Part shown: positions 7,982 to 13,961 of the stretch, piece after piece
Layout of the letters: every line of letters begins with the position of its first letter
Position numbering within the stretch: the first letter of the stretch is position 1
DNA from: Bradymonadia bacterium
GTDB taxonomy: Bacteria; Myxococcota_A; Bradymonadia; UBA7976; UBA1532
Assembly (NCBI GenBank): GCA_046290225.1
Contig: JBKAGE010000035.1
Span: 32,001-96,000 of the forward strand
DNA length: 64,000 nucleotides
Direction: 5' to 3'
Notes under the pieces: generated by a model
Told to the model about the DNA's origin: nothing
Databases searched by the model: none
Seen by the model: the letters and a program-made list of their open reading frames with translations, nothing else
Translations under genes and position numbers: made by a program

Positions 7982-9313
7982 CAATGGCGCGGGAGACCCC
8001 TTCCTTTAGGGAGAGGATGGATAGCGCCGCTCCAAGTTGGTGAGTGGTGCAAGCCCTCTATACAGAGAACGAATGAGCAGGTAAATTAGGCAGGTGGACA
8101 TCAAGCGCGCATACCGATTCAGGTTCTACCCTGGCGACGAGCAGGCGAAGCAGCTTGCCCAGACGTTTGGGTGTGTGCGTTTCGTCTATAACTGGGCACT
8201 CAGGCTACGCAGTGACGCCTGGAAGCATCACCAAGAGAGCATCAGCTACGGCCAGTCCTCCGCAGCCCTCACGGCCCTCAAGAAGATCCCAGAGTATGCG
8301 TGGCTCAAAGACGTGAGCAGCGTGCCCTTGCAGCAGACGCTGCGCCATCTCAACACAGCCTTTGGCAACTTCTTCTCCAAGCGGGGGCGTTATCCGAGCT
8401 TCAAGCGCAAGCACGGGCCTCAACCAGCAGAGTACACCCCCAGCGCCTTCAAGTGGGATGGTCAAACCCTCAAGCTCGCCAAGATGAAGCATCCCCTCGA
8501 TGTTCGGTGGTCGCGTCAAGTGCCCAAGGGCGCTCGGGTAACCACGGTGACCGTCTCCAGAGACGCCGCGGGGCGCTATTTCGTGTCCATGCTCGTCGAC
8601 GACGCCGTAGCACCCTTGCCCAAAGTGAAGGGCCAAGTAGGCATCGACCTGGGGCTGACACACTTCGCCACGCTGTCTACTGGCGAGAAGGTGGACCCCG
8701 CCAACGTATTGAGAAAGCACGAGAAGAAGCTGGCTCGCCTACAGCGACTGTTGGCCAGGAAAAAGAAGGGCTCGAGCAACCGAGCGAAAGCCCGCACCAA
8801 GGTTGCCCGCTTACATGCCCGCATCGCAGACATACGCAGGGACTTCCTGCATCAACTCTCTACTCGGCTCGTGCGCGAGAACCAAGTGATTGCCGTGGAG
8901 AGCTTGTCTGTGAGCAACATGTTGCGCAACCACAGGCTCGCCAAATCAATCGCCGACGCCAGCTGGTCGGAATTCTTGAGACAGCTTCAATACAAATGCC
9001 TGTGGTACGGGCGCACCCTCGTTGCCATCGACCGCTGGTTGCCCTCCAGCAAGCGATGCTCAGAGTGTGGTTATACCCACAAGAAGATGCCGCTCCATGT
9101 CCGGTCTTGGCAGTGCTCCGAATGCGGCGCCGCCCACGACCGCGACATAAACGCAGCACGCAACGTTTTGGCCGCCGGGCTGGCGGTTTCTGCCTGTGGA
9201 GAGTCTGTAAGACCCATCTGCGCTTCCGCGTAGGGAGGCACGGCTTGTTGAAGCAGGAAGCTCCCCGAAGTGACTCGGGGAATCCCCGTCCTTTAGGGCG
9301 GGGAGGATGTCAA
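7982..9313 (+). mobile_element. IS200/IS605-family non-autonomous element (tnpB only, IS1341-like)
   Basis: Subterminal hairpins CCCCTTCC-TTTA-GGGAGAGG (7997-8016) and CCCCGTCC-TTTA-GGGCGGGG (9284-9303); right end closes with TCAA (9310-9313); no tnpA. Left boundary is inferred. Confidence 0.85.
8094..9233 (+). CDS. tnpB: RNA-guided endonuclease TnpB
   Basis: AYRFRFYP...FGCVRFVYN N-terminus; RuvC motifs GIDLG, AVESL, DRDINAA; zinc finger CSEC...CSEC. Confidence 0.97.
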   Translation: MDIKRAYRFRFYPGDEQAKQLAQTFGCVRFVYNWALRLRSDAWKHHQESISYGQSSAALTALKKIPEYAWLKDVSSVPLQQTLRHLNTAFGNFFSKRGRYPSFKRKHGPQPAEYTPSAFKWDGQTLKLAKMKHPLDVRWSRQVPKGARVTTVTVSRDAAGRYFVSMLVDDAVAPLPKVKGQVGIDLGLTHFATLSTGEKVDPANVLRKHEKKLARLQRLLARKKKGSSNRAKARTKVARLHARIADIRRDFLHQLSTRLVRENQVIAVESLSVSNMLRNHRLAKSIADASWSEFLRQLQYKCLWYGRTLVAIDRWLPSSKRCSECGYTHKKMPLHVRSWQCSECGAAHDRDINAARNVLAAGLAVSACGESVRPICASA

Positions 9314-9407: not shown

Positions 9408-9435
9408 TTCACCCTTCGAACAGGCATGCTAGACA
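9408..9435 (+). promoter_or_regulatory. Candidate sigma70-type promoter for the retron-like RNA
   Basis: TTCACC (9408-9413), 16 bp, TGc-TAGACA extended -10 (9427-9435); predicted +1 near 9441-9443 coincides with the first inverted-repeat arm. Confidence 0.4.
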
Positions 9436-9442
9436 CCTGTAC

Positions 9443-9696
9443 AGCTCTTTGAAGGCAGTCCAGGTCTAGCCATCTGGGCGGCGTTGCGCCGTCCTGGAGA
9501 ATGCTTGGTCATGCCACACGAGGAAGGCTATTTCAGAATGTCTCTGATCCCCGTCGCGCACTACTCGTCGGGGCGTCCTGAGGCAACTCCGCCAATCGCT
9601 GTTACGCACCCGACGAGTAGTGCGCGACGGGGGAGAATTCAGTGAGCCTTCCACGTCCCAGGTCTTGAAGTAGCGATTTGCTGCCCTTCGAGAGCT
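9443..9696 (+). ncRNA. Retron msr-msd-like non-coding RNA (Mx162-like), without adjacent reverse transcriptase
   Basis: Flanking inverted repeat 9443-9458/9681-9696; small stem-loops 9460-9477 and 9478-9492; long hairpin 9522-9652 with perfect 24-bp stem 9549-9572/9609-9632; motifs shared with Mx162 as recalled. Confidence 0.8.
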
Positions 9697-9734
9697 TGCC
9701 CAGCGCCGACTCAATCAGCACATGGGCATTTACG

Positions 9735-9775
9735 AAGCCGCTTTAGAGTTCACACTCCGAAGCGGCTTTTGTGTA
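9735..9775 (+). terminator. Candidate intrinsic terminator after the retron-like RNA
   Basis: AAGCCGCTTT (9735-9744) pairs with GAAGCGGCTT (9759-9768), inner GAGT/ACTC, running into TTTTGTGTATT. Confidence 0.55.
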
Positions 9776-9835
9776 TTACGGCTGCGAACATGCCCACATG
9801 GGCACTCCCAGAACAGCGGCCGGAGATCACCCACC

Positions 9836-10300
9836 ATGCATGACGACGACCAGCAGCTCTGCGCCGGGCCCCCAGAGGGCGAGACCGGTCGAGTGCTCGC
9901 CCTCGACATCGGCGAGCGCACCATGGGCATGGCCATCAGCGACGAGCAGCGCATCATCGCCCAGGGCCTCGACACCATCCGGCGCACTCGCATGGACAAA
10001 GATCTCGCCGCCCTCGCCGAGGTCATCCGTGAGCACGAGATCGTGCGCATCGTCGTCGGATGGCCTCTGCGGCTCAACGGCAAGCCCGGCATTCAGACCC
10101 AGAAGGTGGCCAAAGTGGCAGCCGCCATCGAAGCGCGCTTCGGGTTGCCCATCGACCGATGGGACGAGCGCCTCACCACCGTCGCCGCCCAGCGGGCCCT
10201 CATCGAAGGGAACGTGCGTCGGGAGAAGCGACGGCAGGTGGTGGACAAGGTGGCCGCCACCCTGATCTTGCAGGGCTACCTCGAAAGGCGCAGCACGTGA
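9836..10300 (+). CDS. yqgF: YqgF/RuvX family RNase H-fold nuclease (pre-16S rRNA processing)
   Basis: LALDIGERTMGMAISD, VVGWP, WDERLTT, VDKVAATLILQGYL; GGAG at 9822. Confidence 0.95.
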   Translation: MHDDDQQLCAGPPEGETGRVLALDIGERTMGMAISDEQRIIAQGLDTIRRTRMDKDLAALAEVIREHEIVRIVVGWPLRLNGKPGIQTQKVAKVAAAIEARFGLPIDRWDERLTTVAAQRALIEGNVRREKRRQVVDKVAATLILQGYLERRST

Positions 10301-11292
10301 TGCGCCTCATCAAGCGGCTGATTCTGCTCGCCCTCGTCGGCGGTATCGGCATCGGCGCCTATGGCTATGTGCGAGTCACCAACTACCTCGACACCGCCAT
10401 CGGTGCCGCAGGCACCATCGAGACCGTGAAGATCCCCAAAGGGATCACCTTCAAGCGCGCCGTGGCGCAACTCTCCGAGGCCGGCGTCGTCACCGATCCG
10501 ATGGTCTTCGAGTGGTACGCCCGCATGGTCGAGCAGACCGACGTCAAGGCCGGCACCTACGCCATCGACCTGGGCACCACCCCCCGCGATCTGCTCGAGC
10601 AGCTGGGCAAGGGCGGGCTGATCCCGCAGGTGAAGATCACCGTGCCCGAAGGTCTCAACAAGTGGGAGATCGCCGATCTGCTCAGCGAGAAAGGCCTCGT
10701 GGACCGGGCGAAGTTCCTGCAAAAAATCGACGCAGAGAAGCTCGAAGGCCGTTTGTTTCCGGACACCTACCAAATCAGGAACGATGCCACCCTCGACCAG
10801 ATCGTCGCTCGCCTCACAGGGCGCTTCGACGAGGTCTTCTCTGCCACCATCAAGGGCGAGCTGCCCGAAGGCATCGAGAGTCCCGAGGCGTTGCTGACGC
10901 TCGCCTCCCTCGTGGAGAAAGAAGCCCGGGTCGACGAGGAGCGCCCCATCATCGCCCGGGTGTTTCTGAACCGCATCGCCAAAGGCATGAAGCTGCAGAC
11001 TGATCCGACCTGCGTGTACGGCGCCGAGCTCTACACACAGAAGCCCCACCCCCGGTACTGCAAAGACCCGGCGAATCGCTACAGCACCTATGTCATCGAT
11101 GGTCTGCCGCCCTCACCCATCGCCAACCCTGGCGCTGCAGCCATCAAGGCCGCCATGCACCCTGCAGAAGACGATCGGGCGAAGACGCTGCTCTTCTTCG
11201 TGGCGAAGCAGGATGGCTCAGGCCGCCACGTGTTCACCGCGGACTACAAAGATCACGTGCGGGCGGTGAACCGATACCTGCGGGGCAAGTAG
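10300..11292 (+). CDS. mltG: Endolytic transglycosylase MltG
   Basis: N-terminal TM, ITVPEG, LEGRLFPDTY, LASLVEKE, LQTDPT, GLPPSPIANPG; start overlaps yqgF stop. Confidence 0.95.
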   Translation: MRLIKRLILLALVGGIGIGAYGYVRVTNYLDTAIGAAGTIETVKIPKGITFKRAVAQLSEAGVVTDPMVFEWYARMVEQTDVKAGTYAIDLGTTPRDLLEQLGKGGLIPQVKITVPEGLNKWEIADLLSEKGLVDRAKFLQKIDAEKLEGRLFPDTYQIRNDATLDQIVARLTGRFDEVFSATIKGELPEGIESPEALLTLASLVEKEARVDEERPIIARVFLNRIAKGMKLQTDPTCVYGAELYTQKPHPRYCKDPANRYSTYVIDGLPPSPIANPGAAAIKAAMHPAEDDRAKTLLFFVAKQDGSGRHVFTADYKDHVRAVNRYLRGK

Positions 11293-13961
11293 AGCAGCAC
11301 CAGCAGCCACAAAGCCCAGGGAGAGCCTGCCCCCGTGGCGCTGCACCCACCGGAGCCCCCCGAGAGGCTCTGGGCGTCGATCAAATCAGAGAAGCCATCG
11401 TCGTTGGAGTCGGGGTCGAGGGGATCGAGGCCCAAAGCCAGCTCGTCGGCATCTGAGAGGCCATCACCGTCATCATCCGTATCGAGGCCGTCACACACAC
11501 CGTCACTGTCGGTGTCGATGACGTTGCCTTCGTCATCGACCGTGCACGCATCGGGGATCTCCACCTCCGTGCCGTCGATCACGCCGTCACCGTCAGCATC
11601 TCTGTCGAGGGCATCACACACGCCGTCGCCATCGCTGTCGACGAACTCACCCCCACACGCCGCCTCGAGCTCATCATCGACGCCATTGCCGTCCGCGTCG
11701 TCGTCGAGCGGGTCGCACACGCCGTCGTCGTCGCTGTCGACGAAGGCGCCCCCACAAACCTCAACGAGGCCATCGTCGACGCCGTCACCGTCAGCGTCGT
11801 CGTCGAGGGGATCACACAGACCATCACCGTCGCTGTCGACGAACTCGCCTCCGCATGCGGCTTCAACAGCGTCTTCCACACCGTTGCCGTCCGCGTCGCT
11901 GTCGAATCGATCGCAGGTGCCATCGTTGTCGGTGTCGACGAACACCCCACCACAGGCTTGCTCCACCGAATCGTCGACGCCATTGCCGTCCGCATCGCTG
12001 TCGAGCGGATCACAGGTGCCATCGCCATCGTCATCGAAGAACTCACCCCCGCAGGCCACCTCGATCATGTCGTCGACGCCATCGCCGTCCGCATCTGCAT
12101 CAAGGGGATCGCAGATGCCGTCACGATCTGTGTCCACGATGAAGCCCCCACAGGCAGCGGCGAGATCATCGTCGACACCATCACCATTCGCGTCCTCGTC
12201 GAGGGGATCACAGATGCCGTCACCGTCGAGATCGTTGAAGCCACCACCACACGCCTGCTCCAACGCATCGTCGGTGCCATCGCCATCCGCGTCATCATCG
12301 AGGGCGTCGCACAGACCATCTTCATCGGTGTCGACGAACGCTCCGCCACAGGCAGAGATGAGGGCGTCCTCAGTGCCATCCCCGTCCACATCTGGATCAA
12401 GCGCGTCGCACACCCCATCTTCATCGGTGTCGACCAGCTCGCCCCCACAGGCTTCCACCAGGGCGTCGCTGACGCCATCACCGTCTGCGTCACCATCGAG
12501 GGGATCACACACCCCATCACCATCTGTGTCGACGAACTCGCCCCCACAGGCCGCCGCCACCCCATCATCGACGCCGTCACCGTCAGCGTCGCTGTCGAGC
12601 ACGTCGCACACGCCGTCGTCATCGGCATCTGCAGGGGTGTCGTCGGGTGCCGCAGGATCAGAGCCACAGATGCGCTCCAGCTCGTCGGAGGCGCCGTCTT
12701 GATCACCGTCGAAGGTGATGCACAGCGAAGGCTCGTCCATACAGTTCCAGCCCATCTCGACCGCGCACAGGTTAGAGCAGCCATCGCCTGCATCCAGATC
12801 CCCGTCGTCGCACCGCTCCAGGCCCTCTATGCGGCCGTCACCACAAGCGCTGTCGGACTGCAGCGCCCCGATGTCGCAGAAGGGTGTCGGCCGCGGGGTG
12901 CCGACCTGATCACTGACGATGCGCTCTCCCGTGGCATCGCGACAGTCGCTGGCGCTGCGGGCGGGGCTGTCTGCCCGCAGCGGGTAGCCCCGCACGCCCT
13001 CGATGCTCTCGTACGCCCCGATGCCGATGCTGAAGGTGAGGATGTCGGCCCCGACGGTGGGGCAGTTGGTGGTGGCCAGGAACATGTTCTGGCCCAGAGA
13101 GTCGATCCCGCCCACACAGGCGTCGGGGTTGCCTCCGGTGTAGTTGCCCACCAGGCGCACGGTAGAAGACACCCCAGCAGGGCTCTGGTGCACCAGCGCG
13201 CCGCCATCAGGCCCGGCGGTGTTGCCCACGAAGGTATTGTGGGACACCCGCACCTCCACAGGGCTCGCGGCGTCGGTGAAGATGGCCCCGCCGCCGACAT
13301 CGGCGGCGTTCTCGGAGAATGTGCTGTTGACGACGTGTGTGATGCCCCCGCTGGCGGCGACAGCAGCGCCGTTCGTGGCGCGGTTGCGGCGCAGGGTGGT
13401 GTTGCTGATCTCGAGGCGAGAGAGGCCTCCTGAGATGGCCAGTGCACCGCCCACCTCGGCGCGGTTGCCCACCAGGAAGCAGTCGGTCATACGCACGTTG
13501 CCGTTGTTGACGGCCACAGCGCCGCCGCGATCCGCCCCCTCGGCCCAAGGGTCACCTTGGGTCAGGGTGAGTTGCTCGAAGCTCACCTGGGCGTCATGAA
13601 CCTCCACGATGCGGCTCAAGCCCTCACCGGAGATCGACACACCCGGACCGCCCCGGATCGTCAGCTCGTCCCGAACGTCGAGATCGCCACGCAACGCGTC
13701 ATCATCAGATCCCTGGAGCGCGATGACATAGGTCCCCTCGGAGAGCAGGATTGTGTCGGCGCCCGATCCTGCAGGGCACTCACCTTCGTCGACTCCGATG
13801 GGGGCGTCGGCGTTGGCGGCGATGACGGCCTCTCTCAAAGAGCACATGCCATCCTGGCCGTTGAGCACGTCTGCGGTGGTGGTCACCTCGATGTCCAGGG
13901 CCAGGGCGGCCTGGGGTGCGCACACGGCGCCGAGGAGGATGAAGCGCTTGATCGAAGGCAT
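11253..13961 (-). CDS. CSLREA-domain surface protein with Asp-rich Ca-binding repeats and MYXO-CTERM-like tail
   Basis: Signal peptide, CSLREA, beta-helix region ending CDIGA, CGDG..EG.E.CDDG Cys repeat, 33-aa DxDxDG.CD repeats, GGCS...WALWLLVLL..RRR tail. Confidence 0.85.
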   Translation of the reverse strand: MPSIKRFILLGAVCAPQAALALDIEVTTTADVLNGQDGMCSLREAVIAANADAPIGVDEGECPAGSGADTILLSEGTYVIALQGSDDDALRGDLDVRDELTIRGGPGVSISGEGLSRIVEVHDAQVSFEQLTLTQGDPWAEGADRGGAVAVNNGNVRMTDCFLVGNRAEVGGALAISGGLSRLEISNTTLRRNRATNGAAVAASGGITHVVNSTFSENAADVGGGAIFTDAASPVEVRVSHNTFVGNTAGPDGGALVHQSPAGVSSTVRLVGNYTGGNPDACVGGIDSLGQNMFLATTNCPTVGADILTFSIGIGAYESIEGVRGYPLRADSPARSASDCRDATGERIVSDQVGTPRPTPFCDIGALQSDSACGDGRIEGLERCDDGDLDAGDGCSNLCAVEMGWNCMDEPSLCITFDGDQDGASDELERICGSDPAAPDDTPADADDDGVCDVLDSDADGDGVDDGVAAACGGEFVDTDGDGVCDPLDGDADGDGVSDALVEACGGELVDTDEDGVCDALDPDVDGDGTEDALISACGGAFVDTDEDGLCDALDDDADGDGTDDALEQACGGGFNDLDGDGICDPLDEDANGDGVDDDLAAACGGFIVDTDRDGICDPLDADADGDGVDDMIEVACGGEFFDDDGDGTCDPLDSDADGNGVDDSVEQACGGVFVDTDNDGTCDRFDSDADGNGVEDAVEAACGGEFVDSDGDGLCDPLDDDADGDGVDDGLVEVCGGAFVDSDDDGVCDPLDDDADGNGVDDELEAACGGEFVDSDGDGVCDALDRDADGDGVIDGTEVEIPDACTVDDEGNVIDTDSDGVCDGLDTDDDGDGLSDADELALGLDPLDPDSNDDGFSDLIDAQSLSGGSGGCSATGAGSPWALWLLVLLYLPRRYRFTART

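Follow-up and report, generated by a model that had tools for sequence, protein, structure and literature searches.

Retrons are defined as contiguous cassettes of an RNA and its reverse transcriptase (RT) in the relevant passages of PMC7736814, and surveys look for the RNA no further from the RT than 500 bp (PMC10849725) or 10 kb (PMC13712802). So narrow a survey range means that free-standing RNA genes would be missed and that their RTs would look RNA-less. The question arises at positions 9443–9696 of the window (the whole 64,000-nt stretch analysed here, from a Bradymonadia bacterium), in the gap between an IS200/IS605 tnpB gene and ruvX–mltG, where an earlier note had claimed a retron msr-msd RNA of the Mx162 family on a contig (C35) that carries neither an RT nor a type XIII protein gene. 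Is this a retron template RNA and, if so, which RT would copy it? We consider it quite probable that the window RNA is an intact msr-msd gene, transcribed on its own, that serves a type XIII retron with its protein genes at another place in the genome. The features on which the argument draws are:

8094..9313, + strand: IS200/IS605-family tnpB gene (8094–9233) and right end, upstream of and outside the element; three copies in the genome
9408..9435, + strand: promoter-like site, TTCACC (9408–9413), a 16-nt spacer and TG-n-TAGACA (extended −10 like)
9443..9468, + strand: a2 arm, 5′ half of the closing helix, with the outer arm (9443–9458) and three pairs (9466–9468) by the branch point
9469, + strand: predicted branching guanosine in TAGC, facing G9670 (alignment, covariation)
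9469..9511, + strand: msr part with stem-loop 9476–9494 (five invariant inner pairs; alignment)
9504..9670, + strand: msd template, its 3′ stop placed provisionally from the Myxococcaceae alignment and the 8-base overlap described in an excerpt of PMC6868368
9549..9632, + strand: variable long stem of 24 perfect pairs (9549–9572/9609–9632) with a conserved apical part
9671..9696, + strand: a1 arm, 3′ half of the closing helix (pairing with a2)
9735..9774, + strand: terminator-like hairpin, then TTGTGT (9697–9800 folds with z −4.5)
9836..10300, + strand: ruvX, then mltG, downstream of and outside the element

Anatomy and family of the RNA

Most of the anatomy claimed earlier is present. The outer inverted repeat (9443–9458/9681–9696) is 75% complementary, and its arms pair at −26.4 kcal/mol vs −13.7 ± 3.2 with shuffled partners (0/500), so that terminal inverted repeats of the a1/a2 kind, copy-specific and complementary, enclose the element. 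The 24-bp stem at 9549–9572/9609–9632 is perfect, the helix at 9522–9529/9645–9652 extends to 9518–9529/9645–9656, and the GCGGCG-TTG-CGCCG stem-loop stands where it had been placed. The proposed first small hairpin (CCAGGT/ATCTGG) fails, with a pair probability of 0.08 and a 3′ arm lacking conservation; the first msr hairpin of most relatives is absent from the window copy, an absence that the alignment shows to be common to G004 and G006. One msr stem-loop and one long msd hairpin are left, within the layout of retron RNAs (one to three short msr hairpins plus one long msd hairpin). The RNA as a whole folds at −136.9 kcal/mol (z −7.0), a value that none of 200 shuffles equalled, as the folding check suggested in the earlier note would have it. 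Across 39 distinct aligned rows, the proposed structure pairs 84% of cells vs 67% when shuffled and at most 50% when slid, and 37 of 50 pairs have changed on both sides—figures that are not probabilities, as the rows are related—and the five inner pairs of the msr stem-loop are invariant.

Kinship with the Mx162 family was judged via the cis RNAs of Corallococcus and Archangium rather than the named Mx162 RNA sequence. A profile built from 12 copies (this genome and related ones) finds, among the matches listed, RNAs ~190–230 bp upstream of retron RT matches in Archangium, Corallococcus and others, mostly with a SWIM gene upstream. The claimed Mx162-family membership holds up in an end-to-end alignment with these cis RNAs, to which identity outside the long stem is 55–58%, and a model built without the Corallococcus and Archangium RNAs recovers them at E 1e-6 to 1e-8. 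The Corallococcus RT is 81% identical to a 485-aa Myxococcus xanthus RT, which we take to be the Mx162 RT. Ten more RT-adjacent RNA loci emerged among 12 examined from a family search of 61 genomes. The five short motifs attributed to Mx162 msDNA do occur on the minus strand in the claimed order (one of them searched as CTCCCC, not TCTCCCC); as evidence of kinship, GCACTAC/GTAGTGC counts for little, since it lies in the hypervariable stem and is absent from the second copy of the RNA in this genome. Taken together, homology and structure indicate that 9443–9696 is an msr-msd RNA gene of the type XIII (Mx162) retron family.

Where would reverse transcription be primed? The earlier choice, G9458, has no conserved counterpart; the conserved TA[G]C motif (9467–9470) puts the G at 9469, opposite G9670, and we rejected branching at G9458 because the conserved register and covariation favour G9469, which is most likely the branch G. 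In Myxococcaceae RNAs the aligned motif is CA[G]C, its G likewise opposite a G, and an excerpt of PMC6868368 gives TAGC as the commonest branch context and CAGC as that of Mx162; the predicted G9469 is, like the priming G of retron RNAs, at the end of the a1/a2 helix in such a context. Of 88 distinct copies, 80 have G facing G in register, 2 have A facing A, and 6 are unparsed or off register. The two bases 5′ of the branch G pair with the two 3′ of G9670 and covary (TA/TA, CA/TG, TG/CA), and all 39 distinct rows retain the three inner pairs by the branch point, with changes that compensate each other. It is covariation by itself that argues for these three pairs (9466–9468), which have a pair probability of 0.0 in the single-sequence ensemble and cost ~7 kcal/mol to force. 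The predicted product would be a branched msDNA of ~167 nt, a minus-strand copy of 9670 to ~9504, in agreement with the estimate made before (165–170 nt, from ~9670 to 9503); folded as DNA, the minus strand (168 nt) scores z −9.7.

Two side observations concern the branch point. The repeat CCAGGTCT occurs at 9460–9467, just 5′ of the branch G, and at 9658–9665, near the template start; a similar direct repeat at L145 varies in step between copies, and the 5′ end of the msDNA could pair with the a2 arm of the RNA. In G015 (L016:1491–1719) and G023 (L018:1493–1721), A stands opposite A at the branch position and the flanking pairs are compensated; an A-primed retron or a shifted register is possible there.

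The position of the RNA between an IS605 end and ruvX could suggest something other than a retron, i.e., 6S, SRP or another known RNA, a MITE, a ruvX leader or the IS605 end itself. We find this scarcely credible. The check for 6S, SRP and other rival families that the earlier note called for gave no Rfam match in the window at the gathering threshold, only sub-threshold hairpin matches; homologues adjoin retron RT genes; and no conserved link ties the RNA to ruvX or tnpB. More generally, 28 related loci hold no ruvX, mltG, tnpB or nitrilase match beside the RNA, and a link of the RNA to any of these genes was rejected on that ground.

The reverse transcriptases and their co-occurrence with the RNA

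The genome assembly (99% complete, 83 contigs) contains only two RVT_1 genes, both on contig C79 and both called RT_XIII by PADLOC. They belong to two complete type XIII operons that converge tail to tail at C79:172510–193017 (G000; L041, L042): WGR-ARM, SWIM and RT1 in one, and an intact ARM-BRCT, WD40/HEAT, SWIM and RT2 in the other. Both RTs carry NAxxH, YADD and VTG, as type XIII (clade 10) enzymes do, and are 44–46% identical to each other; RT2 matches RT_XIII at E 1.6e-170 and shows 52% identity with the M. xanthus RT (RT1, 44%). The linked SWIM and HEAT/ARM proteins characteristic of the type are present in the RT2 operon as SWIM_XIII and two HEAT-ARM_XIII genes.

The two operons differ in their RNAs. 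RT1 has a long structured cis RNA just upstream (~C79:177730–178065) with long CA/GT-rich outer arms, a different family that 13 of the 21 further loci tested around RT1-like genes also have and that has only a weak likeness to the window RNA family in the msr stem-loop (6.4 bits). The RT2 gene directly adjoins the SWIM gene, and the operon, its head included, has no RNA of its own and no window-RNA copy near it. In a FastTree phylogeny, RT2 groups with the RTs that have window-type RNA in cis, apart from the RT1 clade (0.91, 0.999). The window RNA lies at least ~129 kb from the RT2 operon even if C35 and C79 are adjacent. As a point against the pairing, C35 and C79 stand further apart in tetranucleotide profile (0.0072) than the median contig pair (0.0047; maximum 0.0090). 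The RNA does not form the one contiguous cassette with an RT that the definition in PMC7736814 calls for, and this non-contiguity lowers the case for a canonical retron cassette, not that for a retron template RNA.

The distribution of RNA and enzyme across genomes points to RT2. An RT2-type gene occurs in 14 of 61 related genomes (11 orthologues at ≥61% identity and 3 relatives at 53–54%), and the RNA was found in 12 of these 14: 10 of the 11 orthologue carriers and, as divergent copies with 50-bp stems, 2 of the 3 relatives. The other 47 genomes gave no convincing RNA copy; weak model matches in G033, G038 and G044 were dropped, as they lack the long perfect stem. The two carriers of an RT2-type gene in which no RNA was found (G014 and G028) are 89% and 91% complete. 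Among 151 genomes of the phylum (≥90% completeness; 15 RNA candidates scored per genome), 9 have the full RNA and 8 a full-length RT2-type match, and all 8 are among the 9 (G162, with a weak partial match at E 8.8e-4, was left out of the count); in the ninth, G144, the RNA lies 1.6 kb before ARM-BRCT and HEAT genes in an operon that runs toward the contig end. An RT2-type gene is likewise present in each of the 15 genomes to which named RNA loci led. As the genomes are related, these co-occurrence counts are not statistically independent. With that in mind, the window-type RNA family tracks RT2 orthologues across genomes.

Could RT1, or both RTs, use the window RNA instead? The two enzymes are both type XIII and 44–46% identical, and the 6.4-bit stem-loop likeness joins their RNA families. 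Such use is nevertheless very improbable: a conserved RNA of its own stands in cis to RT1, window-type RNA is lacking where all RTs of a genome are RT1-like or more distant, and G022 and G116 have the RNA and RT2 with no RT1 match.

Placement of the RNA relative to the operon varies among relatives. It lies near the RT in only one of the 12 carriers (G022, 0.9 kb behind it), 101 kb off in G029 and on another contig in ten, with adjacency possible in G009 and G030, whose contigs are small. More broadly, the RNA is found at the operon head (G062, G063, G064, G065, G197, G144), behind the RT (G022 and, as four in tandem, G069), between the SWIM and RT genes (Myxococcaceae), or away from a visible, RNA-free operon head (G000, G013, G015, G021, G023, G061, G067, G116). 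The contig pattern scan listed at least 120 loci, of which 24 scored with the RNA profile (2 of them duplicates of loci in the set), and is not a census. Sequence comparison shows retron RNA anatomy, membership in an Mx162-like family, an intact RNA-less RT2 operon and co-occurrence of the two.

Copies, probable transcription units and stems

A profile search found exactly two full copies of the RNA in the genome, both on C35 and 424 kb apart. They are identical at 162 of 167 positions (97%) outside the long stem and at 32 of 48 (67%) inside it; both stems have 24 perfect pairs, eight of which have been replaced on both sides between the copies. The outer arms of the two copies show no sequence relation, but within each copy a2 and a1 pair (−26.4 and −28.9 kcal/mol), vs −13.5 and −13.9 kcal/mol for arms crossed between copies and about −14 for shuffles. 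Because all stem changes are compensated and each a2 matches its own a1 only, the copy differences are those of selection on structure, neither of a recent duplicate nor of decay.

These data bear on whether the RNA is a stranded relic, split from its operon and out of use. The contig has no RT, one msr hairpin is absent, and the G009 copy (L020:1285–1434) retains the scaffold with most of the long stem deleted, all of which would fit such a relic. We hold it quite improbable, as both window-type copies keep perfect 24-bp stems with eight compensated pairs, their own complementary arms and a scaffold that is 97% identical, the RT2 operon is intact, and the missing hairpin is common to G004 and G006.

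The copies also look like separate transcription units. The promoter-like site at 9408–9435 would place a transcription start at ~9442–9443; TGnTA occurs upstream of 15 of 25 homologous copies vs 0 control stretches (one control stretch empty), and a −10-like hexamer (TA[CGT]A[AC][CT]) upstream of 33 of 36 planctomycete copies vs 1 of 36 controls. Downstream of the window RNA is the terminator-like hairpin, and the second copy likewise has a hairpin, then TTTGTGTAT; scans with strict consensus models called neither a promoter nor a terminator at the window RNA. Metatranscriptome contigs of 181–185 nt from two studies match the RNA only, one of them with compensated stem changes; these matches are relatives, in assembled contigs that could derive from DNA, and are no proof of transcription, and missing transcriptome cover over the flanking genes carries no evidential weight. 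Between the RNA and ruvX, 9697–9804 holds a direct repeat, CACATGGGCA (9719–9728 and 9795–9804), and nested hairpins. One seawater transcriptome contig spans 9599–9840 at ~98% identity.

An alternative is that the copies are selfish, SINE-like repeats, spread by the retron RT through retrotransposition and without a role. Neighbours differ in every lineage, copy number spans 1 to 25, and an excerpt of PMC6868368 describes Retron-Nex1 msr-msd repeats without an RT within a kilobase. We regard this as improbable, given that the planctomycete copies include the upstream −10-like hexamer, which a retrocopy would lack; that each copy has a perfect yet different stem and matched outer arms; that most carrier genomes hold only 1–4 copies; and that direct repeats at the flanks show no excess (mean of the longest 7.2 own vs 6.8 crossed), although old insertions could have lost their duplications.

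Relatives extend the two-copy case. In G063 (a 13.7-Mb Planctomycetota assembly, contamination unstated), there are 32 RNA matches, with at least 25 full copies on 7 contigs and 22 different stems (from 21 regions); 8 of the 25 lie on the contig holding the RT2 operon, and one RT2 orthologue stands among 12 RVT_1 matches. G071 has 22 RNA matches and one RT2 orthologue. Relatives thus appear to keep 1 to ~25 free-standing RNA genes, mostly with different central stems, per single RT2-type enzyme. Nearly all copies in G063 (L267–L285) and G071 (L304–L316) have the −10-like hexamer and a downstream hairpin. Tandem arrays of 2–4 copies with different stems occur at L012, L145, L345, L057, L059, L088 and L131. 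Divergent members in G030 (L235) and G029 (L237) have perfect stems of ~50 bp, so stem length is not fixed.

Where do the stems come from? Several G071 stems are built of an 8-base repeat abundant elsewhere in G063 and G071, which suggests that stems can be acquired from host hairpin repeats. As a tandem repeat it has 65 pattern matches in G063 and 221 in G071. Host hairpin repeats replace some msd stems (L280:2097–2335, L309–L315), and a repeat-like insert is also present in L286. Stems are enriched in 8-mer palindromes (29 vs 13.0 ± 3.2 expected in 60 arms), an excess that is centred in G063 (14 vs 1.7), does not reach significance in the group holding the window RNA (3 vs 1.5, p 0.2) and may stem from template-switch mutation. 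Wobble polarity (7 G-U vs 2 A-C, p 0.18) gives no sign of stem selection as DNA. A reading of the stems as CRISPR-like spacers was rejected, as nothing else in the genome matches the window stem with 4 mismatches or fewer. One planctomycete stem that was searched matched itself only. In viral contigs, the RNA family pattern was not found, stem 1 gave one exact 17-mer, non-extending and taken as chance, and stem 2 gave none.

A proposed trans-acting type XIII retron and its known counterparts

We propose that the window RNA would be transcribed from its own promoter, that its outer arms would close a helix ending at G9469, and that RT2 would prime in trans from the 2′-OH of this G and copy 9670 to ~9504. 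The product would be the ~167-nt branched msDNA, and the second copy would give a second msDNA with another stem. There is precedent for trans action in Eco1, for which split msr and msd work in trans (PMC8989520, in excerpt). Less firmly, the msDNA may stay complexed with the RT2 operon proteins. The SWIM protein of that operon (L041:13443–15350; model pLDDT 81.6) is predicted to have, in its N-terminal half, the two-domain fold of a PCNA-like sliding clamp: in the predicted structure, residues 55–370 match PCNA with Z 15.6 and rmsd 2.8 over 212 aligned positions. This half might hold the duplex stem regardless of sequence; pairing would be kept and stem sequence left free because a clamp-like grip would ignore sequence, and under such a grip differences between stems could be neutral. 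No domain of a toxic effector was identified. By analogy with other retrons, we see an even chance that the complex senses disturbance of its msDNA; a host housekeeping role is possible.

A bolder version, which we put forward as tentative and rather unlikely, is that one type XIII RT complex serves an expandable, dispersed repertoire of template RNAs, in which stems are exchangeable cassettes, new ones arise from palindromes or host hairpin repeats, and the msDNA library acts as baits. If true, this would be a natural multiplexed retron working in trans, with 2 msDNA duplexes here and up to 22 in a planctomycete, and its library would bait many DNA-binding or DNA-modifying proteins.

RNA homology, RT clade and partner genes place the system with the type XIII retrons, minus the contiguous cassette. 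Its likeness to type XIII, RT clade 10, as excerpted from Mestre et al. 2020 (PMC7736814; Retron-Mxa1 Mx162, Retron-Sau1 Sa163), lies in the RNA family and in the layout shared with Mx162 and Sa163 (a2, branch G, GGCG-TTG-CGCC stem-loop, long msd hairpin, a1), and with the type in general it shares a similar predicted msDNA size, an RT N-terminal extension, and SWIM and HEAT/ARM partner genes. Unlike Mx162 and Sa163, the window RNA lies at least ~129 kb from the RT on another contig and exists as two copies with different stems; compared with Mx162, it has TAGC in place of CAGC around the branch G and lacks one msr hairpin, and RT2 shares only 52% identity with the M. xanthus RT. In the literature searched, no function was found for type XIII, the family of Mx162.

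What appears new, and went unremarked in the earlier note, is the absence of an RT beside the RNA (the likely one lying on another contig) and the dispersed copies tied to RT2, for which the Ne160 repeats and the UG27 arrays are precedents. Retron-Nex1 (Ne160) of the myxobacterium Nannocystis exedens has, by its description in an excerpt of PMC6868368, a duplicated msr-msd without an RT within a kilobase, like the window RNA; its repeats have been read as possible retrotransposition (Lampson and Rice 1997, cited in PMC6868368), whereas the copies here have the look of complete transcription units and go with a single RT clade. Nannocystis records, among the matches listed, show tandem RNA pairs with no RT within up to 10 kb retrieved. 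The ncRNA arrays of UG27 RTs, as described in part of 10.64898/2026.09.22.753630, likewise combine one RT with several RNAs in which a conserved frame surrounds a central hairpin that varies, and each RNA yields a short hairpin DNA of 50–100 nt; however, UG27 is a phage-borne Unknown Group RT with its arrays in cis, and here we deal with a chromosomal retron with a1/a2 arms, a branch G and dispersed RNA genes. Retron-Sen2, triggered by msDNA methylation according to an excerpt of 10.64898/2026.10.13.758329, offers a model for an msDNA stem as bait for DNA-acting proteins, but it is of a different type, with the effector RcaT, and no such effector or trigger is known here. The open-licence literature searched held no account of type XIII RNA genes that are dispersed and go with a single RT clade, nor of a clamp fold in the SWIM protein.

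With two RTs, three RNAs and a constant scaffold around a variable stem, the genome lends itself to direct tests of RT–RNA specificity and of what the stem does, and it offers a natural model for multiplexed msDNA production.

Further observations concern the surroundings of the RNA. The genome holds two further tnpB element copies at ~88% identity, and the tnpB element gives, at its 3′ end (9193–9259), a sub-threshold RAGATH-18 match. Downstream, 11253–13961 encodes a protein of 902 aa that has a long repeat array rich in Asp, Gly and Cys and a C-terminal tail that is presumably sorting-like.
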